Assembly: GCA_902776835.1 (NCBI GenBank)
Contig: CACYRK010000027.1
Span: 12,782-76,781 of the forward strand
Length of the DNA stretch: 64,000 bases
Source of the DNA: an uncultured Bacteroidales bacterium
Lineage (GTDB): Bacteria; Bacteroidota; Bacteroidia; Bacteroidales; Muribaculaceae
Reading direction: 5' to 3'
In this document: positions 6,224 to 45,005 of the stretch, one piece after another
Layout: the number at the start of each line of letters is the position of its first letter
How positions within the stretch are numbered: position 1 is the stretch's first letter
The notes under the pieces: model-generated
The model's database searches: none
What the model saw: the letters and a program-made list of their open reading frames with translations, nothing else
What the model was told of the DNA's origin: nothing
Position numbers and translations under genes: made by a program

Positions 6224-8410
6224 ATGAAATCATTTAAAGCAACAATCATGGCAACAATGGCGGCACTACTCACTCTGGCAGGGTGCAACCAAGTGGGCGA
6301 CACGGCAATGTTAATTGGCAAGCCCGATGTGAAAGTTGAAAATGGAAAATTCACCCCTGAGGTGCTTAACTCGTTCGGACGTGTGAGCAACCCGCAGGTG
6401 TCGCCCGATGGCACGCGCGTGCTCTATGGCGTCACCTACATGAGCATTGAGCAAAACAAAGGCAACTGTGAACTCTGGGTGGCCGACATCAACGGCCAGA
6501 ACGCCATCCCACTCACCGTCACTCCCAACAGCGAGTCGAACGCCGTGTGGATTGATGGCGGTGCGCGCATCGCTTTTATCTACAAAGACGAGAGCGACGA
6601 GAACGCCACTCCGCAACTCTGGGTGATGAATGCCGACGGCAGCAAGCGCGCTTGCGTGAGCCAAATGGAGAACGGCATCGAGGGCTTCCTGATCTCGCCC
6701 GACCAGACCAAGGTAATTCTCATCAGCACGGTGAAGTATGGCAAGACGGCTCAGGATTATCATCCCGACCTCGACAAGACCAAGGCACGCGTTATCGACG
6801 ACTTGATGTATCGTCACTGGAATGAGTGGACCACCGAAATCCCTCACCCCTTCGTGGCAAACTTTGTTGGCGGCGTGGTTAGCGATCCCAAGGATCTGCT
6901 CGAAGGCACACAGTTCGAGTCGCCAATGCGACCCTGGGGAGGTATTGAGCAGTTGGCTTGGATGCCCGACTCGAAGGCGCTCATCTACGTGTGCCGCAAA
7001 CTTACCGGTGTGGAATATGCCACCTCGACCAATAGCGACCTCTTCCGATACACCCTCGAGAACGGCAAGACCGAAAACCTCACCGAGGGCATGATGGGCT
7101 ACGACAACAACCCCATCGTCTCGAAGAGCGGCAAAATCGCTTGGCTCTCGATGGAGCATGACGGCTACGAGGCCGACAAAAACCGCATCTTCTTGATGGA
7201 CACCAACGGCCAGAAGACCGACCTGACCGCCAACTGGGACTACAGCGTCGACGAGATCGCTTGGTCGCCCGACGAGAAATACATCTATTTCATCTGCCCG
7301 TTCCAGGGCACGATGCCGATGTTCCGCCTCGAGGTGGCAACGCAGAAAATCGACACCATCGCAGCAGGACAATATGACTACACGGGCCTGGCTTTTGCCG
7401 GCGAGAACGTGATCACGATGCGCCACTCCTACCTCGAGCCTAACGAGATCTACAGTGTGAAGCCGGGCGCTCAGCCCGCCGAGCCCACCGTGCTCACTCA
7501 TGTGAACGACGACCTCCTGGCCCAACTCGACTCGGTGACTTGCGAAAAGGTGATGGTGCCCACCACCGACGGCAAGCAGATGACCACCTGGGTGCTCCTG
7601 CCTCCGGGATTCGACAAGACGAAGAAGTATCCCGCAATCCTCTTCTGCGAGGGCGGACCGCAATCGCCCGTGAGCCAGTTCTGGAGTTACCGCTGGAATC
7701 TGCGCCTGATGGCAAGCCAAGGTTATGTGGTGATTGCCCCCAACCGCCGCGGTCTGCCGGGATTCGGCACCGAGTGGAACGCACAAATCTCGGGTGACTA
7801 TGGCGGCCAGAACATGAAAGACTATCTGAGCGCTGTCGACTTCATGAAGAAAGAGCCGTGGATCGACGCCGAGCACATCGGTTGCACCGGTGCCAGTTAC
7901 GGCGGATATTCGGTCTACTGGCTTGCCGGTAACCACCAGAAGCGCTTTGCTTGCTTCCTGTCGCATGCCGGAATTTTCAACATCATGGCTCAATACCTCG
8001 AGACCGAGGAAATGTGGTTTGTCAATTGGGACATCGGCGGCCCGTATTGGGACAAGAGCAACGCCTTGGCTCAGAAGAGTTATGCTGTGGCTAACCCCGC
8101 CAACTATCTGCAGAATTGGGACACCCCAATCATGTGCACCACTGGCGACAACGACTTCCGCATCTCTTACACGCAGACCATGCAGGCCTTCAACGCCGCT
8201 AAGTTGATGGGCTTGCCGGCACGCATGGTGCTCTTCCCCGACGAGGACCACTGGGTGCAGAAGCCGCAGAACAGCGTGCTCTGGCAGCGTGAGTTCTTCA
8301 ACTGGATGGACCGCTGGCTCAAGCCCGACAGCGAGGCTGCCAAGAAAGCCGCTGCCGACACTGTGCCTCCTGTCAAGCAAGTGGTGAAGAACCCCATGAT
8401 GGCAAAGTAA
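6224..8410 (+). CDS. S9 family serine peptidase (prolyl oligopeptidase/acylaminoacyl-peptidase type) lipoprotein
   Basis: Start moved to ATG 6224 (MKSFKATIMATMAALLTLAGC, lipobox). Beta-propeller N-half; GxSxGG nucleophile elbow (GASYGGY), then TGDNDFR (Asp) and DEDHW (His). Confidence 0.85.
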   Translation: MKSFKATIMATMAALLTLAGCNQVGDTAMLIGKPDVKVENGKFTPEVLNSFGRVSNPQVSPDGTRVLYGVTYMSIEQNKGNCELWVADINGQNAIPLTVTPNSESNAVWIDGGARIAFIYKDESDENATPQLWVMNADGSKRACVSQMENGIEGFLISPDQTKVILISTVKYGKTAQDYHPDLDKTKARVIDDLMYRHWNEWTTEIPHPFVANFVGGVVSDPKDLLEGTQFESPMRPWGGIEQLAWMPDSKALIYVCRKLTGVEYATSTNSDLFRYTLENGKTENLTEGMMGYDNNPIVSKSGKIAWLSMEHDGYEADKNRIFLMDTNGQKTDLTANWDYSVDEIAWSPDEKYIYFICPFQGTMPMFRLEVATQKIDTIAAGQYDYTGLAFAGENVITMRHSYLEPNEIYSVKPGAQPAEPTVLTHVNDDLLAQLDSVTCEKVMVPTTDGKQMTTWVLLPPGFDKTKKYPAILFCEGGPQSPVSQFWSYRWNLRLMASQGYVVIAPNRRGLPGFGTEWNAQISGDYGGQNMKDYLSAVDFMKKEPWIDAEHIGCTGASYGGYSVYWLAGNHQKRFACFLSHAGIFNIMAQYLETEEMWFVNWDIGGPYWDKSNALAQKSYAVANPANYLQNWDTPIMCTTGDNDFRISYTQTMQAFNAAKLMGLPARMVLFPDEDHWVQKPQNSVLWQREFFNWMDRWLKPDSEAAKKAAADTVPPVKQVVKNPMMAK

Positions 8411-8433
8411 TCTAAGCCACAACCCACCACACA

Positions 8434-8469
8434 AAACGCCCCGCGACTGCATCGGTCGTGGGGCGTTTC
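8434..8469. terminator. Bidirectional hairpin between the convergent S9 peptidase and CCA/MGMT genes
   Basis: aacgccccgcgac ... gtcgtggggcgtt (13 bp with one G-U), with A-run/T-run flanks. Confidence 0.6.
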
Positions 8470-8497
8470 CTTAATGTCGTTAAAGCCCTTGTTGTCC

Positions 8498-10438
8498 TTA
8501 AGACTTGTTTCTCGCCTCGAGGTCGAGGAGCGCTTGCTTGATGTGGCTGCCCGAGGCGTAGCCACCGATCTTGCCGTCGCTGTTAATCACGCGGTGGCAG
8601 GGCACCACGATGCACAGCGGATTGGCATTGTTGGCGCCTCCCACGGCGCGCTGGCTCTTGGGCTTGCCGATGCGCCGTGCCTCCTCGGCATAACTGATGG
8701 TGGTGCCGTAAGGGATGGTTTGCAGGGCCTCCCAGCATTGCTTCTGGAACGGCGTGCCGTCGGCATGCAGCGGCAGGCTGAACTGCTGGCGTGTGCCAGC
8801 AAAGTATTCGTTGATTTGCTCCACGGCATGCTCCAGCAGTGGCGAGAGGCGATTGACGGGCGTAAGATGCATCTTCTTGGCGATGTCGAAAATCTTATTC
8901 TCGATGGGCGAGAACGATATCGCCACCAGGCCGTGGTCGTCGGCGGCAATGTGGATGTCGCCCACAGGTGTGCTGATGCTCGTGTAGCACAGATATTGCG
9001 CGGTGATGCTCTTGAGTCCCTGTTGCGATGCCAGTGTGAGCATCATCTGATAGGCTTGCCCATAGTTGTTGGAGATGCTTCCGTCGAGTATGGCGTCTTT
9101 GATGGCATCCTTAATCAAGCCCACGGGCCGCGAGGGTGGCAGGTTGAACATCCTCATGATTTCCTCGCCGTCGATGGGCGGTTGGAAATTGCGCACACGA
9201 TCTTTCTCCTCGATGTCGACGAGTTTGCGCTTCACCAGGTCGAAGTTGTCTTTGAAGCGTCGCACCTTCTCCTGGTTCTTGCTGGTGATGTCGGCCTTGC
9301 ACAGCAGCATCAAGTCGTCGATGTCGTTGCCCGCGTCGAAGAGCAGGCGGCGCACCGCCGAGTCGGTCACCTCGTCCTCCACCAGGGCGATGGGTCGCAT
9401 GTGCAGCCCCACGAGTTTTTTCACATATTTCATGTGCTCGTTCAGCGGCAGTCGCATCTTGCCGAAGATCCTCGGCACCATCTTTTCGCCCACAAAGTTG
9501 TGGTTGTGGAAGGTCCAGCCCTGCGTGGCGTCCCAGCGCTTGGTGGTGGGCTTGCCGATGTCGTGCAGCAGGGCGGCCCAGCGCAGCCACTCGTTGTCGC
9601 TGGCGGCAGCCACGTTGTCGAGCACCTGCATGGTGTGCAGGAAATTGTCCTTGTGGCCGCGGCCATGGCTGGTGTCCACGCCCTTAAGCGCGTCGAGTTC
9701 GGGGAAGATGAGTTTTAGCAAGCCACACTGCTCCAGCAGCACGAAGCCGCGCGAGGGCTGCGGCGCGCGCATAATTTTCATCAACTCGTCGGCTATGCGC
9801 TCGCGCGTGATGATGGCGATGCGCCCAGCATTGCGCGCGATGGCCTTGAAAGTGTCGGGAAAGATGTCAAAGCCCAGTTGCGTGGCAAAGCGCACGGCGC
9901 GCATCATGCGCAGCGGGTCGTCGCTGAAGGTGATGTCGGGGTCGAGCGGGGTGCGTATTGTTTTGCGGCCGATGTCGCCCAGGCCGTCAAAGGGGTCAAG
10001 AAGCGCGCCGAAGTTGTCGGCATTGAGCGCGATGGCCATGGCGTTGATGGTAAAGTCGCGGCGATTCAGGTCTTCCTCGAGCGTGCCGTCCTCAACGATG
10101 GGGTTACGGCTCTCGCGGCGATAACTCTCGCGACGAGCACCCACAAACTCCAGTTCCAGGCCGTCGCGCGTCTTGACCTGCGCTGTGCCGTAGGTTTTGA
10201 ATATCGACAGATGCGCATTCTTGCGGCCATAGTGCTCGGCAACAGCCTTTGCCACCTCGATGCCGCTGCCCACCGTCACAAAGTCCATGTCCTTGCTCGG
10301 GCGCTCCAGGACGATGTCGCGCACATAGCCGCCAACCACGTAACACTCGCGGTGCATCGTGTCGGCAACGTCGCCTACCGTGCGGAACACCGGCTGGTCG
10401 ACATGAGCCATTATCTTGTCGTGTAGTTTTGCGTCCAT
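8498..10438 (-). CDS. Fusion protein: CCA-adding tRNA nucleotidyltransferase / poly(A) polymerase-family with HD domain (N, ~480 aa) + methylated-DNA-protein-cysteine methyltransferase Ogt/MGMT (C, ~167 aa)
   Basis: N-terminus ECYVVGGYVRD...DMDFVT...RRDFTINA (pol-beta NTase), HDIGKP (HD). The C-terminal 167 aa form a full MGMT with active-site IVVPCHRVI. Single uninterrupted 646-codon ORF. Confidence 0.8.
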   Translation of the reverse strand: MDAKLHDKIMAHVDQPVFRTVGDVADTMHRECYVVGGYVRDIVLERPSKDMDFVTVGSGIEVAKAVAEHYGRKNAHLSIFKTYGTAQVKTRDGLELEFVGARRESYRRESRNPIVEDGTLEEDLNRRDFTINAMAIALNADNFGALLDPFDGLGDIGRKTIRTPLDPDITFSDDPLRMMRAVRFATQLGFDIFPDTFKAIARNAGRIAIITRERIADELMKIMRAPQPSRGFVLLEQCGLLKLIFPELDALKGVDTSHGRGHKDNFLHTMQVLDNVAAASDNEWLRWAALLHDIGKPTTKRWDATQGWTFHNHNFVGEKMVPRIFGKMRLPLNEHMKYVKKLVGLHMRPIALVEDEVTDSAVRRLLFDAGNDIDDLMLLCKADITSKNQEKVRRFKDNFDLVKRKLVDIEEKDRVRNFQPPIDGEEIMRMFNLPPSRPVGLIKDAIKDAILDGSISNNYGQAYQMMLTLASQQGLKSITAQYLCYTSISTPVGDIHIAADDHGLVAISFSPIENKIFDIAKKMHLTPVNRLSPLLEHAVEQINEYFAGTRQQFSLPLHADGTPFQKQCWEALQTIPYGTTISYAEEARRIGKPKSQRAVGGANNANPLCIVVPCHRVINSDGKIGGYASGSHIKQALLDLEARNKS

Positions 10439-26823: not shown

Positions 26824-26874
26824 CCCGCCACACCTCCCCGCGGCACAACCGCGGCCACCAAACCCCGCTTGTGA
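26824..26874. repeat. REP-like hairpin repeat, left flank of RAYT copy 1
   Basis: Reverse complement of 27798..27848 (37/38 identical over tcacaRgcggggtttggtggccgcggttgtgccgcgg). Internal GCCGCGG-n5-CCGCGGC hairpin. Confidence 0.75.
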
Positions 26875-26914
26875 TTTTTTTTAAAAGAAAATTGCATTTT
26901 TCCTGCTGACGCGG

Positions 26915-26922
26915 TAAATTTG
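26915..26922 (+). promoter_or_regulatory. Possible -7 box (TAAATTTG) for RAYT copy 1
   Basis: Exact TAnnTTTG but only 4 nt before ATG 26927. Confidence 0.3.
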
Positions 26923-26926
26923 CAAT

Positions 26927-27790
26927 ATGGAATGGAAAGAAAACATAAACAAGCAGCACAAGGACGGAATACATGAGCCTTCGATGAAGCGCCGCTGCAC
27001 AGCGCACGATTACAAAAACCGCTGCTTTTACATGATAACGCTAGTGGTAAACAAGCGCCATCCGCTGCTGGGCACCATCGAAGGTGACGGGCTGACGAAC
27101 CAGGCCCAAATAAAACTTGGCGTGCTTGGCCAAGCAGTGACCAAAGAACTTGTCGCTATCCCAAATTTTTACCCGCAACTCGAAATTGGAAGGCTACAAA
27201 TCATGCCCGACCACCTTCACGTCATAATCTTTGTGAAAGAACCCATTCCAGTGCATTTGGGGAGAATAATAAATGGTTTTAAAGTCGCTTGCAACAAAGC
27301 GTTCAGAGCGCTCAAAGAGCAAGGAAAAGTCAAAAGTGACTCAACAGCACTTTGGGAGCAAGGATATCACGACCGCATCCTGCGCCATGAAGGCCAACTT
27401 CAAAGAATGCGCAACTACATCGCCGACAATCCACGCCGCTGGGCCATCAAAAAGAATAACCCTGAGTTGTTCCGCGTGCGGCACAATGTGGAGGCTGGAG
27501 GCCAACTCTTTGCAGCACAAGGCAATGTGTTTCTTCTCGACGCTCCTTGGCTCGTGGCGGTGAAGTGCAGCCGGAGTCTCAGCCAGGATGAGATTGCAAG
27601 AGAATGCGAGCGTTATCTCTCGCAAGCCCGAGAGGGGGCCGTGCTGGTGTCGCCGAGCATCAGCGCAGGCGAGAAAGCGGTTATGCGCGCGGCTTTTGAC
27701 CAAGGTTTTCCCCTCATCTTCTTGCAAGACGAGATGGCCGAGGCAATCTGCAGTGAAAATCGTGGCACAGCCACAATGCAAAAGCCGTGA
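26927..27790 (+). CDS. RAYT-like HUH (Y1, IS200/IS605-superfamily) transposase with ~100-aa C-terminal extension, copy 1
   Basis: RRCTAHDYKNRCFYMITLV, PDHLHVIIF (HUH), WEQGYHDRIL (catalytic Tyr), NYIADNPRRW. Then an extra domain: LFAAQGNVFLLDAPWLVAVKCSR...GAVLVSPSISAGEKAVMRAAF. Confidence 0.75.
   Translation: MEWKENINKQHKDGIHEPSMKRRCTAHDYKNRCFYMITLVVNKRHPLLGTIEGDGLTNQAQIKLGVLGQAVTKELVAIPNFYPQLEIGRLQIMPDHLHVIIFVKEPIPVHLGRIINGFKVACNKAFRALKEQGKVKSDSTALWEQGYHDRILRHEGQLQRMRNYIADNPRRWAIKKNNPELFRVRHNVEAGGQLFAAQGNVFLLDAPWLVAVKCSRSLSQDEIARECERYLSQAREGAVLVSPSISAGEKAVMRAAFDQGFPLIFLQDEMAEAICSENRGTATMQKP
27419..27729 (+). repeat. 311-nt direct repeat (3' part of RAYT copy 1)
   Basis: Hand alignment to 33311..33621 gives 12 mismatches and no indels (about 96% identity). 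Confidence 0.85.
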
Positions 27791-27797
27791 ATAAGAT

Positions 27798-27848
27798 TCA
27801 CAGGCGGGGTTTGGTGGCCGCGGTTGTGCCGCGGCGGGGTGGGAGAGG
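27798..27848. repeat. REP-like hairpin repeat, right flank of RAYT copy 1
   Basis: See 26824..26874. Starts 7 nt after the RAYT stop. Confidence 0.75.
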
Positions 27849-32009: not shown

Positions 32010-32780
32010 ATGAATACTAGCAAAATTGTACTCATCACTGGTGCCACGAGCGGCATCGGACGGGCTTGTGCAATGAAGTTTGCAAGCCAACCAGGTTATG
32101 ACGTAATTATCACTGGCCGCAAGCCGGAATTGCTTGCCGACCTTGAGGCCGAGTTGAAAAAGTGTGGCAAGGGCCGCGTGACCACCTTGTGTTTCGACGT
32201 GCGCGAACGTGGTGTCGCCTTTGAAGCCATCGCCTCGCTGCCCGCCGACTGGGCCGAAATCGACGTGCTCATCAACAATGCCGGCCTCGCACTGGGCCTT
32301 GAGCCGGAATACGACGGCAGTTACCTCGATTGGGACACGATGATCGACACCAACATCAAGGGCTTGCTGACCATGACGCGCCTGGTGGTGCCGGGTATGG
32401 TGGAACGCAACCGCGGCCATGTGATTAACATCGGCTCGGTGGCTGGCGACGCCGCTTACGCCGGCGGTAACGTGTATTGCGCCACTAAGGCTGCTGTGAA
32501 GACGCTCACCGACGGCTTGCGCATCGACGTGGCACACACCGCAGTGCGCGTGACAAACATCAAGCCCGGATTGGTGGAGACCAACTTCAGCAACACCCGT
32601 TTCCACGGCGACAACGCCCGCGCCGACAAGGTGTACCAAGGCATCGAGCCGCTCACCGGCGACGATATTGCCGACGTAGCCCTCTACGCAGCACAGGCTC
32701 CCGCCCACGTGCAGATTGCCGAGGTCCTCGTCTTGGCCACCCACCAAGCCAGCGGCTCAGTAATCCACCGCAACTCCTAA
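32010..32780 (+). CDS. SDR-family NAD(P)-dependent oxidoreductase (YdfG-like)
   Basis: TGATSGIGRA, NNAG, YCATKAAV (YxxxK). Confidence 0.88.
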   Translation: MNTSKIVLITGATSGIGRACAMKFASQPGYDVIITGRKPELLADLEAELKKCGKGRVTTLCFDVRERGVAFEAIASLPADWAEIDVLINNAGLALGLEPEYDGSYLDWDTMIDTNIKGLLTMTRLVVPGMVERNRGHVINIGSVAGDAAYAGGNVYCATKAAVKTLTDGLRIDVAHTAVRVTNIKPGLVETNFSNTRFHGDNARADKVYQGIEPLTGDDIADVALYAAQAPAHVQIAEVLVLATHQASGSVIHRNS

Positions 32781-32781
32781 T

Positions 32782-32810
32782 CCCAGCCACAGCACTGCTG
32801 TGGCACAGGG
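32782..32810. repeat. REP-like hairpin repeat, left flank of RAYT copy 2
   Basis: The reverse complement of cccagccacagcactgctgtggcacaggg matches 33637..33665 at 27/29. Internal CCACAGC-n3-GCTGTGG hairpin. Ends 8 nt before the ATG. Confidence 0.75.
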
Positions 32811-32818
32811 AACTTCTT

Positions 32819-33625
32819 ATGGATTGGGAAGAGTATAAAAACAAAAAACAGTGGGCTGGAAAGGCCAAGCCTTCGATGACCCGTCGCCGCATCGGCCACG
32901 ATTACCATGGCCGATGCATTTACATGGTCACGCTGGTGGTTAACGGCCGACAGCCGCTGCTGGGCACTATCAAGGGCGATGGCGAGAAGACACCTGCGAA
33001 AATGCTGCTCAGCGACCTCGGCGATGCTGTGTCACAAGCACTTAGCAGTCTTCCACGCTTTTATCCTGCACTGCAAATATGGAATCATCAAGTCATGCCC
33101 GACCATTTGCATGCCATCTTTTTTGTGCAAGAGCCCATCCCAATGCATTTCGGAAAAATAGTAAATGGCTTTAAAACCGCTTGTAACAAGGCATTAAGGA
33201 GACTTAAAGAGCAAGGAAAAGTGAAGACGGGCCTGATGTCACTTTGGGAACCAGGCTATAACGATCGCATCCTTGACCATGAAGGGCAACTCCAGCGCAT
33301 GAAAAACTACATCGCCGACAACCCTCGCCGCTGGGCCATCAAAAGGAATAACCCTGAGTTGTTTCGTGTGCGGCACAATGTGGAGGCTGGAGGCCAACTC
33401 TTTGCAGCACAAGGCAATGTTTTCCTTCTCGACGCTCCTTGGCTCGTGGCGGTGAAATGCAGCCGGAGTCTCAGCGAGGATGAGATTGCAAGAGAATGCG
33501 ATCGATATCTCTCGCAAGCCCAAGAGGGGGCCGTGCTGGTGTCGCCGAGCATCAGCGCAGGCGAGAAAGCGGTTATGCGCGCGGCTTTTGACCAAGGTTT
33601 TCCCCTCATCTTCTTGCAAGATTGA
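32819..33625 (+). CDS. RAYT-like HUH (Y1) transposase with C-terminal extension, copy 2
   Basis: RRRIGHDYHGRCIYMVTLV, PDHLHAIFF, WEPGYNDRIL, NYIADNPRRW. The C-terminal extension is nearly identical to copy 1. Confidence 0.75.
   Translation: MDWEEYKNKKQWAGKAKPSMTRRRIGHDYHGRCIYMVTLVVNGRQPLLGTIKGDGEKTPAKMLLSDLGDAVSQALSSLPRFYPALQIWNHQVMPDHLHAIFFVQEPIPMHFGKIVNGFKTACNKALRRLKEQGKVKTGLMSLWEPGYNDRILDHEGQLQRMKNYIADNPRRWAIKRNNPELFRVRHNVEAGGQLFAAQGNVFLLDAPWLVAVKCSRSLSEDEIARECDRYLSQAQEGAVLVSPSISAGEKAVMRAAFDQGFPLIFLQD
33311..33621 (+). repeat. 311-nt direct repeat (3' part of RAYT copy 2)
   Basis: Partner of 27419..27729. Confidence 0.85.
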
Positions 33626-33636
33626 TTATTGTGGTT

Positions 33637-33665
33637 CTCTGTGCCACAGCATTGCTGTGGCTGGG
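33637..33665. repeat. REP-like hairpin repeat, right flank of RAYT copy 2
   Basis: ctctgtgccacagcattgctgtggctggg; starts 11 nt after the stop. Confidence 0.75.
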
Positions 33666-33674
33666 TTGAGATAG

Positions 33675-33708
33675 CACAGGCGGCGCCCGAGATTGGGTGC
33701 CGCCTGTG
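33675..33708. terminator. Hairpin between RAYT copy 2 and the C10 gene 3' ends
   Basis: cacaggcggc ... gccgcctgtg (10 bp); weak T-run. Confidence 0.4.
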
Positions 33709-33751
33709 TTATATTGCGGGTGCAAGCCTTGTGAAGGCTTGGCCTGGATGC

Positions 33752-36700
33752 TTATTTGTTCAGCAGCAGGTTAATCATGGCATTGATGTCGCTGCCGTTC
33801 ACCACATTGTCGCTGTTGTCCACGTTGGCGCGGCCGTCGTAGTTGTCGGCGCTGTCGTGGCCAAGAACGATGTTGATGAGGATGTTCAGGTCGATACCGT
33901 CGACTGCGCCGTCGTTATTAACGTCGCCTGTAATAACCGGGTTCACTACGCCCTCGCCCAGAATGGGGATGAACGTGAGTTGGTGAGCACCGGCCAGTGC
34001 GGTGAAGTAGGCGCGGAACGGGTCGACAGCCGTTGCGGCAGTGACAGGCTCAAAGCCTGTGCCGGCAGCGTTGAGAGCGAAGATGCTCTCGAGCGAGCCG
34101 CCCATGAACGTGCCGGTGAGCACATAGTTCTGACCGCTGGTCATGGCAATTGGCTCGGCCTTGAGAGTCGTGGTGCCGGCACTCCAGGTGACCTCTTTGC
34201 CGTTGAGTCCACTCTTCACAGCCACTGCGTAGGGCACGTTGGCCGTGATTTGGTTAGTGATGGCAAAGGTGGGCACCGAATCTTCCTCGGTAGCGAAGCG
34301 CGCAATCCACAAGTCGGCAGCCTCGTCGGCGTTGGTGGCGGCGGTGAGTGCATTGCCATTGGCATCCTTGACCAACTCGGGAGTGAACGGCAAAACGATG
34401 GTGTTCCAGCCGTTGGACGCGGGGGCGGTGCGGGTACTGTTGAAAGCACGGGTGTAACTAATCGATTGGGTGGTGAAACTCACTGGCGTGAAGTAGTCGT
34501 AGCCGTCACGCAGAGCGATGCTCTGTGCCTGATTGCCTACAATCACGTTCTTCTCTTCAAGTCCGTTGGGAATACTCTCCTCGACACCGACGATGTACAT
34601 TGTGTTCGGGTTGGCGTTAGGAGTCACGCTGTTGATGTTCAGGCCATCGAGGCGCACTGCAATGGCATTATCGGGAACGACGATGTCGCCCTCGGCAGCC
34701 ATACCCATGCCCTTAATGTCGTCGCGGGTCCACACCACCATGCCGTGCTTGATGTCGTAGTACACTGAACTGCCTTTCTCCACGATGTTGACAAGTTGGT
34801 CTTGCTCGTTGCGTGCATAGATGTTGAGCGAGTAGGTCTGGTCGAAGCCCAGGTCGGTAAACTCGAAGTAGAGCGTCTTGGTCTCGCCAGGAGCAACGCT
34901 GAGTTCGCTCTGTCCGTAGGTGACCATCTCGCCGCCCGTCACATTGCCGGCAGCATCTTTGTGAACGAGGAACAGCGGAGCCAGCACATATTTGTTATAC
35001 TCGCTCTCGCCATTGTTGGTGATGTCCACCTTAAAGCGTGCGTAGTTGTCGTAGATGGTGTTGCCGGTAGCATTCTCGGCCTGGATGGTGACAGCCAGGT
35101 TGGTAGGCAACTCGGTGTAATCCTCGATAATCACCTGGCCATTGCCGGCGATGCGCTTCTCGCCATAGGAGTCAAGCGTGACATACACTGCCTTGGTGCC
35201 CGACGACTCGGGGGTGACGTTGAAGGTCACAACGTTGCTCTCGCCAGGCATCACCTCGCTCTGGAGCATGGTGGTGTAGGCGCCAAACTCGTCGATTTGC
35301 TGGCCGCCGAACCACAGATACAGGTCGCCATAGAAGCGGTCGGCGCTCTGGTTCTCGAGCGTGACGTGCACTTGCTCGGGCTTGCCAACCTTCTCACCGC
35401 CAGTGAATTCAAACTTGGTAGCAACGAGATTGATGATGGGGTGAGCGGTGAACGACGCCTCGTAGTTGGTCATCTCGCACTCCATGTAATAGCGGTCGGT
35501 CTCCAGCATGGGCTTCCATTCGTCGGTGCCCTCAAGTTGGTAAACGGGAACGATGAGGTAAGAGCCAGTCAGGCCAGCGCCAAACTTCACGCCGTCGCGC
35601 ACCTCAAGGCTGGCGCCGAAGTTCTCGAAACTGCCCAGTGCCGAGGTGAGGGCGGTGGAGTAGTTGCCGCGGTTAATCATCAGTTCCACAAAGTTGTGGT
35701 TGGTGTCGTAGAGTGCCAGACCAACGTCGTAGCGCTTGCCCGAACTCATGTGGTCGGCATAATTCAACTTGAAAGTTTTGCGCTTGTAGATGTTGAAGCC
35801 TTGGCTCTTGCTGTCGCGCTCCATAGTGCCCGAGAAGCCCAATGCGAAGCCCGTTGCTGTGAGGGCATATTCGGTCTGCGGGTCGGGGTCTACGCCCTGC
35901 TCGGGGTCGCCCGGCGTGATGCCGATGATGGCGCTCTGCTTCATGTTGTAACCCTCGGCGCTCGACGAGCCACCGATGCCGCTCTCACGGGGATTGAGCA
36001 CGGCCAGTTGGAAATAGCCATTACCCATGCCACCCCAACCCCAGTTGATGTGGAAATAGTCGCCAGCCTCATAGCCGTCGCACACAAACGAGTGGCCACC
36101 ACCGCTGCCGGCACTGCCGTTGTAAACCATCGGGCGGCCCTCGACCAGTTCATTATAAATAAGGTCGTCCCAGTTGCCCTGGGTGTAATCGTTACGGAAC
36201 ACGAGTTGAATCGAGTTCTTGTCGTAAGCAAAGTATTTGGTGAAAGCCGGCAGGATTTCGTCGGTATACGTTGCCGAAGCACTCAGGCCGTAGGACATCT
36301 TCACCGCATAGCCCACATAGAGCATGAGGTTGGCCACCGCGTCGGTGTAGACCTCGCTTTCGCTGCCGGTGTAACTGTCGAGCATGTGTGCCCAGTCAAA
36401 GTCGATGATGGGCAACTCTTCGGTGGTCGATGTGCCGTAACTATATTCGCCGGTCGAGAAGGTGAATGTGTAGGACGGAATCACTTGCGTGGGGCGCTCG
36501 GGCCAGTTGTAGTACTTCATGATCTGGCTCATGCTGGTTGCCACGCAACCTGTGTAAGCGAGTTCGCCAATGGTGTCGCCGTTCTCGTCGATATCCATAA
36601 ACTCTGGGCACTTGTTCCAGTAGGGTGCTGCCTGGTTCCACTTGGTGGTAATCAGCGGCGCTATCGAGTTGCGCGTGGGCACGCTGGCATTGCGTGGTGC

Positions 36701-37096
36701 GGCCAGCATCAGTGCGCTTTCATTGTCGCTCATCTTGTCCAAGGCCTTGATTTGCTCGGCATAACTTGCCATCCATGCTTTCATGTTGGCCGGAATCTTG
36801 TTCTCGTCGAAGGCTCCGGTGTCGCTGTAGCCTAAGATTGGCACTGTGCGGTCGTCGCCCGAAACGATGACGAAGCCACCGCCGTCGACGTTAAACACAT
36901 AGTAATAACTTTGGTCTCCTGTGCTGAGCAGGCGTGGTGCCTTGCTGGCAACCTTTAGTGCGCTGTTGCCGCCGCGTTGCTGCATCAGGAATGATTTGGC
37001 CTCTTGCATGGCAGTCGACATGTCGACTGGTCTTGCGCTAAGTCCCAGTGCTAAAGGCAAAAGCATTAACAACAATAATGCGTGTTTTTTGTTCAT
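33752..37096 (-). CDS. C10-family (streptopain/SpeB-like) cysteine peptidase with long C-terminal beta-rich region and terminal dockerin-like repeats
   Basis: Signal peptide; Spi-inhibitor-like prodomain (YYYVFNVDGGGFVIVSGDDR); catalytic GCVATSMSQIM (Cys), GGGHSFVCDGY (His), HINWGWGG. The C-terminus is GDVNNDGAVDGIDLNILINIVLG...NVDNSDNVVNGSDINAMINLLL. Confidence 0.88.
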   Translation of the reverse strand: MNKKHALLLLMLLPLALGLSARPVDMSTAMQEAKSFLMQQRGGNSALKVASKAPRLLSTGDQSYYYVFNVDGGGFVIVSGDDRTVPILGYSDTGAFDENKIPANMKAWMASYAEQIKALDKMSDNESALMLAAPRNASVPTRNSIAPLITTKWNQAAPYWNKCPEFMDIDENGDTIGELAYTGCVATSMSQIMKYYNWPERPTQVIPSYTFTFSTGEYSYGTSTTEELPIIDFDWAHMLDSYTGSESEVYTDAVANLMLYVGYAVKMSYGLSASATYTDEILPAFTKYFAYDKNSIQLVFRNDYTQGNWDDLIYNELVEGRPMVYNGSAGSGGGHSFVCDGYEAGDYFHINWGWGGMGNGYFQLAVLNPRESGIGGSSSAEGYNMKQSAIIGITPGDPEQGVDPDPQTEYALTATGFALGFSGTMERDSKSQGFNIYKRKTFKLNYADHMSSGKRYDVGLALYDTNHNFVELMINRGNYSTALTSALGSFENFGASLEVRDGVKFGAGLTGSYLIVPVYQLEGTDEWKPMLETDRYYMECEMTNYEASFTAHPIINLVATKFEFTGGEKVGKPEQVHVTLENQSADRFYGDLYLWFGGQQIDEFGAYTTMLQSEVMPGESNVVTFNVTPESSGTKAVYVTLDSYGEKRIAGNGQVIIEDYTELPTNLAVTIQAENATGNTIYDNYARFKVDITNNGESEYNKYVLAPLFLVHKDAAGNVTGGEMVTYGQSELSVAPGETKTLYFEFTDLGFDQTYSLNIYARNEQDQLVNIVEKGSSVYYDIKHGMVVWTRDDIKGMGMAAEGDIVVPDNAIAVRLDGLNINSVTPNANPNTMYIVGVEESIPNGLEEKNVIVGNQAQSIALRDGYDYFTPVSFTTQSISYTRAFNSTRTAPASNGWNTIVLPFTPELVKDANGNALTAATNADEAADLWIARFATEEDSVPTFAITNQITANVPYAVAVKSGLNGKEVTWSAGTTTLKAEPIAMTSGQNYVLTGTFMGGSLESIFALNAAGTGFEPVTAATAVDPFRAYFTALAGAHQLTFIPILGEGVVNPVITGDVNNDGAVDGIDLNILINIVLGHDSADNYDGRANVDNSDNVVNGSDINAMINLLLNK

Positions 37097-42896: not shown

Positions 42897-42974
42897 TGGC
42901 CAAAAAATTTGGTGGATTGGCCAAAATGTAGTAATTTCGTGCAATAAATATCACTCATTAAAAAAATCGTGTAT

Positions 42975-45005
42975 ATGGTTAATGAACAACTGATGACTCG
43001 CGCGGCCAACAATATCCGCATCCTGGCCGCCACAATGGTCGAGAAGGCCAAGTCGGGACACCCGGGCGGTGCCATGGGCGGTGCTGACTTTGTCAATGTG
43101 TTGTACTCCAACTTCTTGGTTACCGACCCCGACGACCCGCGCTGGTTCGGCCGCGACCGCTTCTTCCTTGACCCGGGCCACATGTCGCCCATGCTCTATG
43201 CCGTGCTGCGACTCACCGGAAAGTACACTACCGACGACCTGATGCAGTTCCGTCAGTGGGGCAGTATCACTCCCGGACACCCCGAGGTGGACGTGGACCA
43301 TGGCGTGGAAAACACCAGTGGGCCACTCGGCCAAGGCCATGTGATGGCTGTGGGTGCCGCGATTGCCGAGCGTTTCATTGCCGCACGCTTTGGCGAGGTG
43401 TATGCGCATAAGACCTATGCCTTCATCAGCGACGGTGGCGTGCAGGAGGGTATCTCGCAAGAGGCCGCACGCATCGCCGGTTATTTGGGACTGAGCAACC
43501 TCATCATGTTCTACGACAGCAACACGGTGCAACTTTCGACCGATTGCGACGCGGTGAGCAACGAGGACACCGCAATGAAATATCGCGCCTGGAACTGGAA
43601 CGTCATCGAAGTCGACGGCACCAACCCTGTGGCGCTGGCACAGGCATTGCAGCAGGCCATTGCCGAGACCGAGCGACCCACCATCATCGTGGGACACACC
43701 ATCATGGGTCGCGGTTGCGTGACCGAAACGGGCGAGAACTTCGAGGGCAAGTGCAGCACGCACGGACAGCCCATCAGCAAGAGTGGCGCCAGCTATGAAA
43801 AGACCGTCGAAAACTTGGGTGGTGATCCTGCCAATGGCTGGGCAATCTTCCCCGAGGTGGAGCAACTCTACGCAGCGCGTGCCGATGAACTCCGCCGCAT
43901 TGTGGCTGAGCGCAAACAGGCTGCAGCGAAGTGGGAGAAAGAGAACCCCGAGTTGGCCCAGCAACTTCACGACTATATCGCCGGCAAGGTGGCCGACGTC
44001 GACTATGCCGCCATCGAGCACAAGCCCGGCATCGCTACGCGTGCCGCCAGCGCCAATGTGCTCAAGTGCCTCGCTGGCAACGTGGGCAACATGATTGTAT
44101 CGAGCGCCGACTTGGCAAACAGCGATAAGACCGACGCCTTCCTCAAGGTGGCCGGAGCGTTCGCTCGCCATGATTTCAAGGGTGCATTCTTGCATGCCGG
44201 TGTGAGTGAACTCGCCATGACAGCGATTATCAACGGTATGGCACTGCATGGTGGCGTGATAGCCGCTTGTGGCACATTCTTCGTGTTCAGCGACTACATG
44301 AAGCCCGCCGTGCGACTCTCGGCACTGATGGAATTGCCCGTGAAGTTCATCTGGACACACGACGCATTCCGCGTGGGAGAGGATGGTCCTACCCACGAGC
44401 CCGTCGAGCAAGAGGCTCAAATCCGCCTGATGGAGGAGTTGCGCAACCACAGTGGGCGTCCCAGCATGCTCGTTATCAGGCCCGCCGATGCGGCCGAGAC
44501 CAGCGTTGCATGGAAAATGGCGATGGAAAACACCCTGACTCCCACGGCACTCATCCTTTCGCGCCAGGATATTCCCGACCTGCCCAGCGCCAGCGGCAAC
44601 CGCTACAACGATGCCTTGCAAGCCGAGCGAGGAGGATATATTATAAATAAGGTGGAAAAACCGGCCGTCACACTCGTGGGCAACGGCTCGGAAGTGGCTA
44701 CCCTGGTGGCCGTGGCTCAACTGCTCGAGCCTAAGGGCATAAGCGCACAGGTGGTGTCGGTTCCGTCGATAGGTCGCTTCCTCGAGCAACCCCTCGAGTA
44801 TCGTCGCGAGGTCATCCCCGCCGACGTGCCCACCTTCGGTCTCACGGCCGGTTTGCCCTCGACTTTGCGCAGCGTTGTGCCCGACGGAATGATTGTCGGC
44901 CTCGACCACTTTGGCGCTTCGGCTCCTTACAAGGTTTTGGACGAAAAATTTGGCTTTACAGCCGAGAAAGTGGCCGAAAAAGTCCAAAAATGGGTCGAAA
45001 AGTGA
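42975..45005 (+). CDS. tkt: Transketolase
   Basis: SGHPGGAMG, TPGHPE, GEDGPTHEPVEQ. Start is ATG 42975 or GTG 42969. Confidence 0.95.
   Translation: MVNEQLMTRAANNIRILAATMVEKAKSGHPGGAMGGADFVNVLYSNFLVTDPDDPRWFGRDRFFLDPGHMSPMLYAVLRLTGKYTTDDLMQFRQWGSITPGHPEVDVDHGVENTSGPLGQGHVMAVGAAIAERFIAARFGEVYAHKTYAFISDGGVQEGISQEAARIAGYLGLSNLIMFYDSNTVQLSTDCDAVSNEDTAMKYRAWNWNVIEVDGTNPVALAQALQQAIAETERPTIIVGHTIMGRGCVTETGENFEGKCSTHGQPISKSGASYEKTVENLGGDPANGWAIFPEVEQLYAARADELRRIVAERKQAAAKWEKENPELAQQLHDYIAGKVADVDYAAIEHKPGIATRAASANVLKCLAGNVGNMIVSSADLANSDKTDAFLKVAGAFARHDFKGAFLHAGVSELAMTAIINGMALHGGVIAACGTFFVFSDYMKPAVRLSALMELPVKFIWTHDAFRVGEDGPTHEPVEQEAQIRLMEELRNHSGRPSMLVIRPADAAETSVAWKMAMENTLTPTALILSRQDIPDLPSASGNRYNDALQAERGGYIINKVEKPAVTLVGNGSEVATLVAVAQLLEPKGISAQVVSVPSIGRFLEQPLEYRREVIPADVPTFGLTAGLPSTLRSVVPDGMIVGLDHFGASAPYKVLDEKFGFTAEKVAEKVQKWVEK

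Follow-up and report, generated by a model that had tools for sequence, protein, structure and literature searches.

A widespread RAYT-type HUH protein family with a shortened DprA-like C-terminal domain, apparently truncated in both copies of a Muribaculaceae genome

Results

Two RAYT-like proteins with a conserved C-terminal extension

A stretch of 64,000 nucleotides from an uncultured Bacteroidales bacterium of the Muribaculaceae (GenBank assembly GCA_902776835.1, contig CACYRK010000027.1, positions 12,782 to 76,781), referred to here as the window and used for all coordinates unless stated otherwise, encodes two RAYT-like Y1/HUH proteins, A and B. Both belong to a widespread RAYT-type family in which the catalytic core is fused to a shortened DprA-like tail, a fusion for which no description was found in the literature searched. 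Structural and profile tests, taken together, support the assignment of this predicted C-terminal domain as a divergent, shortened homolog of DprA/Smf (SLOG). With moderate confidence, we propose that A and B are domesticated Y1/HUH proteins at fixed loci in which the DprA-like domain serves as an accessory module that would bind single-stranded DNA (ssDNA). In this genome, the domain is shortened further in both copies by apparent in-frame deletions.

The open reading frames (ORFs) of A and B encode proteins of 287 and 268 aa that are 75% identical overall, and the HUH motif MPDHLH and the tyrosine motif NYIADNPRR are intact in both; H96, H98, and Y164 are conserved throughout the family. The Pfam model Y1_Tnp (PF01797; gathering cut-off, 23 bits) matched A with 29.2 bits and B with 28.7 bits, the match being restricted to residues 84–167. 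The best NCBIfam match, the equivalog model REP_Tyr_transpos (NF047646), ended at residue 171 and scored 55.0 bits for A and 46.7 bits for B, below its equivalog cut-off of 80 bits. Because the Pfam and NCBIfam matches stop at residues 167 and 171, approximately 100 residues of each protein lie beyond the catalytic core. An earlier note on this DNA, written from the sequence alone, had drawn attention to positions 27400–27790 (residues 159–287 of A) and quoted a sequence that runs about 100 aa past the YIADNPRR helix in both proteins; the ORF translations agree with it. The extension is preserved in hundreds of homologs and therefore is not a chance ORF tail. At aligned positions A is 97% identical to its 333-aa ortholog P0001, and the ortholog of B is the 326-aa protein P0003. 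The genes and their domains are as follows.

26927..27790, plus strand: RAYT-like gene A, HUH/Y1 core and truncated DprA-like domain (ORF list; Y1_Tnp, 29.2 bits; orthology with P0001)
27014..27439, plus strand: HUH/Y1 catalytic core of A, approximately residues 30–171, with MPDHLH and Tyr164 in YIADNPRR (Pfam, NCBIfam, and Foldseek)
27440..27727, plus strand: remnant of the predicted DprA-like domain of A, residues 172–267, with the N-terminal β-hairpin, strands 1–3, and helices 1–2 (profile positions 2–98 of 155)
32819..33625, plus strand: RAYT-like gene B, HUH/Y1 core and truncated DprA-like domain (ORF list; Y1_Tnp; ortholog P0003)
33332–33619, plus strand: remnant of the predicted DprA-like domain of B (family profile match)

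Structural and profile comparisons link the extension to DprA

An AlphaFold2 model of full-length P0001, built with 62 homologs, had a predicted local distance difference test score (pLDDT) of 81.8, and a model of the C-terminal domain alone, built with 52 diverse homologs, reached a pLDDT of 94.7 and a predicted template modeling score (pTM) of 0.89. The domain model consists of a β-hairpin followed by four strand-helix units. When the whole model was compared with the PDB by using Foldseek, HUH transposases were matched (the RAYT 4er8, ISDra2, and IS608 TnpA), along with ShosA and the DprA structures of three species (E values of 3.5e-6 to 2e-3). The N-terminal half accounted for the former, with 4er8 as its best structural match (E 2.4e-6) and 4er8, 2xma, and 2vjv at E values of approximately 1e-5 to 1e-6. 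For the domain alone, ranks 1–13 were all DprA or ShosA structures, with a probability of 1.00 and template modeling (TM) scores of 0.61–0.67. ShosA (8zva; E 3.2e-5, TM 0.67) ranked first, followed by 4ljk, 4ljr, 4ljl, and 5mll and then by 3maj and 3uqz, so that DprA from H. pylori, R. palustris, and S. pneumoniae is represented. At rank 14, the values fell to an E of 3e-2, a probability of 0.28, and a TM score of 0.24. Since the first 13 ranks are exclusively of the DprA family and are followed by this cliff, the structural match is specific to DprA and not one to Rossmann folds in general. Identity to the matched structures was low (13–22%). A Foldseek search of viral structures (BFVD) gave no match below an E value of 0.1.

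Profile–profile comparison led to the same family. Alignment of the family to a DprA alignment by using hhalign gave a probability of 90%, an E value of 1.6e-6, and a score of 45 over 102 columns, compared to scores of at most 24 for 100 column-shuffled DprA alignments and 12 for the reversed alignment. The register pairs LfxxGN..LL..P, V.V.(G/C)SR, G.V.VS, the third strand, and G.L.(S/A)(E/P). When a profile of 52 diverse family sequences was compared with PDB sequences, ranks 1–4 were all DprA chains in this same register (E values of 0.08–0.13). Searches of PDB sequences with a single protein or with a narrow 7-sequence profile returned no DprA match, and their top matches, GFP, streptolysin, and DNTTIP1, were dismissed as chance. 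The Pfam model for DprA, PF02481 (DNA_processg_A), matched one of 85 family members at an E value of 0.0011 and one of 52 isolated domains at an E value of 0.073.

The earlier note had proposed a DprA relationship in the register GN..LL..P..VxV(G/C)SR, GAVxVS, and third strand, and both the Foldseek and the profile–profile comparisons uphold that proposal. Its further view, that the extension resembles the first half of the DprA fold and is too short for a complete fold, holds in part. The extension is DprA-like, but the complete domain spans approximately two thirds of the DprA Rossmann fold. Being too short applies to the window copies, because apparent in-frame deletions occur in both of them, and not to the family, whose full-length homologs have a domain of about 150 aa.

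Features of DprA that the domain keeps and lacks

Wang et al. put forward two motifs as hallmarks of DprA domains that bind ssDNA (PMC3950713). Motif 1 is G-S/T/A-R (G50–R52 in HpDprA), of which R52 is the key residue of the ssDNA pocket, and motif 2 is F/L/Y-x-x-R-N/D (F140–N144 in HpDprA); the HpDprA dimer interface is hydrophobic and includes L196 and F205 (PMC3950713). We counted residue conservation in 114 representatives of the family by using P0001 numbering. G199, E249, L291, and N314 are present in 114 of 114. The counterpart of motif 1 is C-S-R, in which the Arg (R216) is found in 101 of the 114 sequences and the Ser in 84, and the position of the motif 1 Gly is occupied by Cys (67), Val (24), Ile (9), or Leu (7). 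The SGxAxGID loop of DprA is kept in the form SPxISxGE, with its acidic residue corresponding to the invariant Glu E249.

The complete domain retains the N-terminal hairpin and four parallel strands, and it ends with a helix that an extended hhalign comparison aligned to the F-x-x-R-N helix of DprA. The last strand-helix-strand unit of DprA (SGSLxTA, vFAvPG, and the dimer interface) is missing from the family, and DprA columns ∼152–215 have no counterpart. Because this final third, including the dimer interface, is missing and PF02481 was failed, the domain is DprA-like and not a member of the DprA family proper. Two near-invariant cysteines, C285 in FDACAxG (108 of 114) and C310 in RxQCLxLN (104 of 114), are both deleted in A and B; they may mark a pocket, metal site, or redox site without a counterpart in DprA. 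C214 of the C-S-R motif is present in 67 of the 114.

Size, distribution, and annotation of the family

A homolog search returned 898 proteins, of which the best 120 are nearly all 321–333 aa long (mostly 321 aa), with a domain of approximately 150 aa. These homologs extend about 55 residues further than A and B (...FLQENGFAPLAKPGGRRFDACAQGRLLMLAPWEHHNDRRxIxRxQCLxLNEMARxIC). When representatives of clusters formed at 50% identity were searched with a profile of the C-terminal domain, at least 1,420 matched at E ≤ 1e-3, and 1,022 did so at E ≤ 1e-10. The domain is almost always C-terminal in proteins of 320–450 aa and nearly always follows a Y1 core: among the best 150 profile matches, 84 had at least 120 residues N-terminal to the domain, and 75 of these 84 contained the HUH motif. 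Y1_Tnp matched 61 of 85 members, and REP_Tyr_transpos was the best NCBIfam match in 81 of the 85, with P0001 scoring 54.4 bits, again below the cut-off.

Scanning of species-representative genomes located members in Bacteroidales, including Muribaculaceae, Prevotellaceae, Sodaliphilus, and the cultured Segatella buccae ATCC 33574, and also in metagenome-assembled genomes (MAGs) of Kiritimatiellia and Verrucomicrobiota. Some genomes hold 2–3 divergent copies. The member P0115 was found, unchanged in sequence and with a context that did not vary, on at least 22 contigs from many samples; it behaves as a fixed gene and not as an active insertion sequence. Both A and B are likewise low-copy genes at fixed loci, being located at the same positions in three close relatives (L001, L002, and L066), and a profile search detected no third copy in the window.

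Some members have unusual architectures. P0129, P0136, P0149, P0215, and P0264 contain low-complexity, Ala/Pro/Gly-rich inserts of 50–150 aa between the HUH core and the Tyr helix; such long inserts occur in many members, and the linker therefore accepts large insertions. In P0248 (536 aa), the place of the upstream HUH core is taken by a RecD2/YrrC-type OB fold and an HHH domain; these are joined to the Tyr helix and to a DprA-like domain with a VGSR motif resembling that of DprA. Either a genuine fusion or a chimeric gene call could explain this protein.

The source annotation of family members is "transposase" or "RayT". No model for the C-terminal domain emerged when the extension and 52–85 members were scanned against Pfam, NCBIfam, and PADLOC, which returned only noise and the one weak PF02481 match, and a full-text literature search found no paper joining "DprA-like" with RAYT, IS200, or HUH terms. 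The combination had been put forward as a new architecture; this is correct insofar as the tail has no Pfam or NCBIfam model or searchable paper, but the tail is a standard feature of a large family that is already annotated as transposase or RayT.

Both genes are bracketed by inverted hairpin repeats

Each gene lies between inverted repeats with hairpins that resemble repetitive extragenic palindromic (REP) elements, the arrangement of a REPtron. The arms are as follows.

26831..26882, unstranded: left inverted-repeat arm of cassette A (pair I1), REP-like hairpin CCGCGG-CACAA-CCGCGG
27790..27841, unstranded: right inverted-repeat arm of cassette A (pair I1), hairpin GCCGCGG-TTGTG-CCGCGGC, folding z = −3.2
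32777..32813, unstranded: left inverted-repeat arm of cassette B (pair I2), hairpin GCCACAGC-ACT-GCTGTGGC
33634..33670, unstranded: right inverted-repeat arm of cassette B (pair I2), hairpin GCCACAGC-ATT-GCTGTGGC, folding z = −3.4

Pair I1, which brackets A, is 52 nt long and 88% complementary, and pair I2, which brackets B, is 37 nt long and 89% complementary. In ssDNA folding every arm forms a hairpin of 6–8 bp, and the hairpins that flank A differ from those that flank B. A crude scan revealed similar GC-rich flanking palindromes at roughly one third of related loci. Comparison of L066 (2073–3213) with the window (26831–27841) showed that the entire cassette A, gene and both 52-nt arms, is inverted between the two genomes; the flanks are colinear and 97–98% identical, and the boundaries lie inside both arms. 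Cassette A therefore flips between close relatives.

The tails of A and B evolve in concert

The DNA encoding the DprA-like domains of the two paralogs is 92–100% identical, whereas the HUH-coding DNA is 53–78% identical. This pattern holds in the window (27437–27729 versus 33329–33621) and in L066 (2117–3118 versus 8191–9171). Beside the point at which the deletions described below begin, the alleles of the window are a mosaic of the A and B types found in relatives, and these alignments clearly point to active gene conversion between the two genes next to that junction.

Both copies in this genome appear to have lost part of the domain in frame

Syntenic relatives of 96–99% identity encode proteins of 333 and 326 aa, and both genes are full length in L001 (a Muribaculaceae MAG), L002, and L066, at the same loci and with the same neighbors. 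According to DNA alignment, A lacks 138 bp relative to L001, an in-frame loss of 46 codons net in which residues 268–314 are replaced by a single Asp. B lacks 174 bp (58 codons) relative to L002, also in frame and with the original stop codon retained. The junctions are as follows.

27729..27730, plus strand: deletion junction in A (alignment to L001)
33621..33622, plus strand: deletion junction in B (alignment to L002)

The two deletions share a 5′ breakpoint, located after TTCTTGCAAGA, and differ in their 3′ breakpoints. They are the sole indels in ∼7 kb of otherwise 97–99% identity to the relatives, and the 5,893 bp that separate the two junctions align to the relatives without a gap. The 3′ breakpoint of B lies ∼20 nt upstream of the stem of the right REP-like hairpin (stem from ∼33643). 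The missing segment spans helix 3, strand 4, and one half of the final helix, and roughly half of the positions that are most conserved in the domain lie within it (G270, K276, P277, C285, G288, L291, P295, R307, C310, and N314). If the deletions are real, the DprA-like domains of A and B have each lost about half of the conserved core and are probably inactive. A split or relocated gene was rejected as the explanation, for profile positions 99–155 are encoded in no frame of the window. The deletion junctions were absent from the JGI metagenomes searched, and the exact truncated proteins were absent from the contig collection searched.

Genomic surroundings

The neighbors of A and B are housekeeping genes (YbaK-like tRNA_edit, chorismate synthase, acyl-ACP thioesterase, and SDR). 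Directly after cassette B, the window contains a GC-rich 18-bp inverted repeat at 33671–33712 (CACAGGCGGCGCCC...GGGTGCCGCCTGTG), which precedes the end of a convergent 1114-aa gene (33752..37096, minus strand) and has the appearance of a shared terminator. The degenerate DNA pattern of the Tyr motif, TAYATH-N6-AAYCC, has a third exact match at 42914–42930 (minus strand), which adjoins a transporter-like gene and lies a short distance upstream of a 678-aa ORF that runs on the other strand (42969..45005, plus strand). This site was rejected as a RAYT, having no profile match in any frame.

Discussion

The family combines features of systems that have been described separately. With RAYT/TnpAREP proteins (E. 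coli 4ER8; TnpAY1 class 2 of Quentin et al. 2018, PMC6006769) it shares the DHLH motif, the W-E motif, and the Y-x-x-x-N-P Tyr helix, and it is likewise of low copy number, at fixed loci, and surrounded by REPtron-like inverted hairpin repeats. RAYT/TnpAREP proteins are ∼150–165 aa long, however, and the 321–333-aa members of the family are about double that size owing to the 150-aa DprA-like C-terminal domain. None of the 12 published TnpAY1 subclasses pairs DHLH/WE/YIxDNP with such a tail (PMC6006769). The same design, a Y1/HUH core with a conserved C-terminal domain that is thought to add DNA or protein contacts, is known from TnpAY1 subclasses 2.1 and 2.3 (TIRYT-like; PMC6006769). The tails of those proteins are helix-turn-helix domains (Bac_DnaA_C, HTH_23/28-like) or subclass-specific and not DprA-like, their HUH motifs are NHVH or NHYH, and they come for the most part from Proteobacteria and reportedly lack flanking REPs, whereas the genes of the present family are flanked by hairpins.

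Compared with DprA/Smf (HpDprA 4LJK/4LJR, SpDprA 3UQZ, and RpDprA 3MAJ), the modeled domain has the same Rossmann-like (SLOG) fold over ∼150 columns (query-normalized TM of 0.61–0.64), the same order of motifs (GN..LL..P, V.V.(G/C)SR, G.V.VS(G/P), an acidic residue after strand 2, G.G...(Y/K)P, and G.L.(S/A)(E/P)), and the Arg equivalent to R52. It differs in lacking the last third of the fold and the SAM or winged-helix accessory domains, in the replacement of the motif 1 Gly by Cys or Val and of the motif 2 Arg by Leu, and in its fusion to a nuclease, where DprA stands alone. ShosA (8ZVA, 9VZO), the DprA-like antitoxin of the ShosTA anti-phage system and the best structural match of the domain, shows that a DprA fold can be put to use in a setting other than natural transformation without losing the ability to bind ssDNA, for which ShosA employs the same residues as DprA (PMC12961424). 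Unlike the family domain, ShosA has the full nine-strand DprA fold and a SAM domain, and its partners are the toxin ShosT and RecA. We rejected a ShosTA-like role in defense: no ShosA or ShosT match and no meaningful PADLOC match of any kind was obtained in the family, and no toxin gene lies beside A or B.

These comparisons suggest how the two domains might work together. By homology to TnpAREP and IS608 TnpA, the N-terminal domain is a hairpin-recognizing HUH nuclease-ligase that cuts and rejoins ssDNA via a 5′-phosphotyrosine. The DprA-like domain may hold the single strand beside the hairpin while the HUH domain acts; we infer such a grip because DprA and ShosA bind ssDNA through this fold and with the Arg that is retained here. 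As the tails are homogenized to 92–100% identity while the HUH domains and the flanking hairpins diverge, the function of the tail would be generic and not specific to a particular hairpin.

Several observations weigh against this account. The DprA alignment used for hhalign comprised only five sequences, in which four aligned structure cores (3maj, 3uqz, 8zva, and 4ljk) were joined to E. coli Smf (L003). A comparison to the single E. coli Smf sequence was misregistered with a probability of 1.5% and was rejected in favor of that five-sequence alignment. Neither A, B, nor P0001 matched PF02481, whose threshold was not reached, and the matches of the family profile to DprA in the PDB (E ∼0.1) are not significant alone. 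The region of HpDprA that contains R170 and the dimer interface (L196 and F205) is absent from the family, and the counterpart of motif 2, in an alignment of low confidence, is C-L-x-L-N, in which the Asn is invariant (114 of 114) and the Arg is replaced by Leu or Met. For the suggested binding of ssDNA, the grounds are the predicted fold and a single conserved Arg. Within the 64-kb window, the hairpin motifs occur at the gene flanks only, and no dispersed REP copies were seen. Finally, the deletions could be an artifact of assembly, a point to which we return below.

A skeptical reader might ascribe the DprA likeness to chance or to generic α/β (Rossmann-like) similarity and regard the extension as an unrelated tail peculiar to the family. 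The low identity to DprA structures, the failure of any single sequence to pass PF02481, and the modest profile-versus-PDB E values would fit such an interpretation, but we consider it very improbable: all of the top 13 structural matches are of the DprA family, no other Rossmann-like protein exceeded a probability of 0.3, the hhalign result was obtained in the register of the motif match with shuffled controls nowhere near it, and the four best PDB sequence matches are all DprA. If the relationship is accepted, its function may still be something other than ssDNA binding. LOG and many SLOG domains bind nucleotides or small molecules derived from them. E249 and the Gly-rich loops of the family are located where SLOG domains bind such ligands, and the domain might sense a nucleotide or nucleotide-derived ligand and gate HUH activity. 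The missing Arg of motif 2, the near-invariant Cys285 and Cys310 with their hint of a specific pocket, and a weak match of the whole model to LOG-like PpnN (6gfl, E 4.5e-2) are compatible with this idea. Nevertheless, we find ligand sensing improbable, given that the domain-only Foldseek search recovered only the ssDNA-binding DprA and ShosA and no LOG, YpsA, or other ligand-binding SLOG above noise, that the LOG signature PGGxGTxxE is absent, and that the motif 1 Arg is kept in most representatives. The domain could also be a protein–protein module through which the transposase would oligomerize or recruit RecA, so that hairpin cleavage is linked to recombination. DprA and ShosA dimerize via this fold and bind RecA (PMC3950713, PMC12961424). 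Y1 transposases work as dimers, as in the matched 4er8 and IS608 structures, and recombination does occur at the loci, where a cassette is inverted between relatives and the paralogs undergo gene conversion; ordinary homologous recombination between repeats can, however, explain both events. We give such a module little credence, for the dimer interface of the DprA fold lies in the C-terminal third that is missing from the family, which also makes RecA loading less likely; the RecA-binding surface of SpDprA is reported to overlap the dimer interface.

The deletions call for a separate assessment. Aberrant gene conversion, enzyme-mediated excision, and an assembly artifact are the candidate causes. 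An error of assembly or consensus calling across the near-identical A/B repeat, in an organism that really encodes two full-length proteins, would account for the start of both deletions at one shared nucleotide inside a stretch in which A and B do not differ (100% identity), for the lack of the truncated proteins and junction sequences on any other contig searched, and for the full-length genes in all three close relatives. Yet the microhomology at the junctions is at most 1 nt, so that a de Bruijn-graph shortcut appears unlikely, the deletion lengths are exact multiples of 3 with the stop codon of B preserved, and the surrounding sequence is clean and gapless. A biological route is also at hand: the mosaic alleles place active gene conversion just 5′ of the junction, and it is plausible from this pattern that a deletion arose in one copy and was then imperfectly copied to the other. 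On balance, we regard an artifact as a doubtful explanation, although one that deserves to be taken seriously.

With A and B viewed as domesticated HUH proteins carrying an accessory ssDNA-binding module, a bolder proposal can be formulated, which we consider unlikely. The family would represent an undescribed, widespread class of Y1/HUH proteins of gut Bacteroidales and Verrucomicrobiota/Kiritimatiellia in which a minimal DprA-derived module couples REP-hairpin cleavage to ssDNA capture and possibly to recombination, and the protein itself would drive the flipping of cassettes, the concerted evolution of paralogs, and perhaps precise in-frame excisions.

Accessory domains are the main clues to the role of domesticated RAYT/TnpAY1 proteins in their hosts. 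In this family the tail has a recognizable ssDNA-handling fold derived from the recombination mediator DprA, which leads to the hypotheses of an additional grip on ssDNA or a link to RecA, and R216, E249, and N314 are offered as testable residues, with Segatella buccae ATCC 33574 as a cultured source. The DprA/SLOG fold gains a truncated form and a fusion partner, both of them new, and a domain can be assigned in at least 1,400 protein clusters that were labeled only as transposase. For the genome studied here, the C-terminal domain would be broken in both copies, if the deletions are real.

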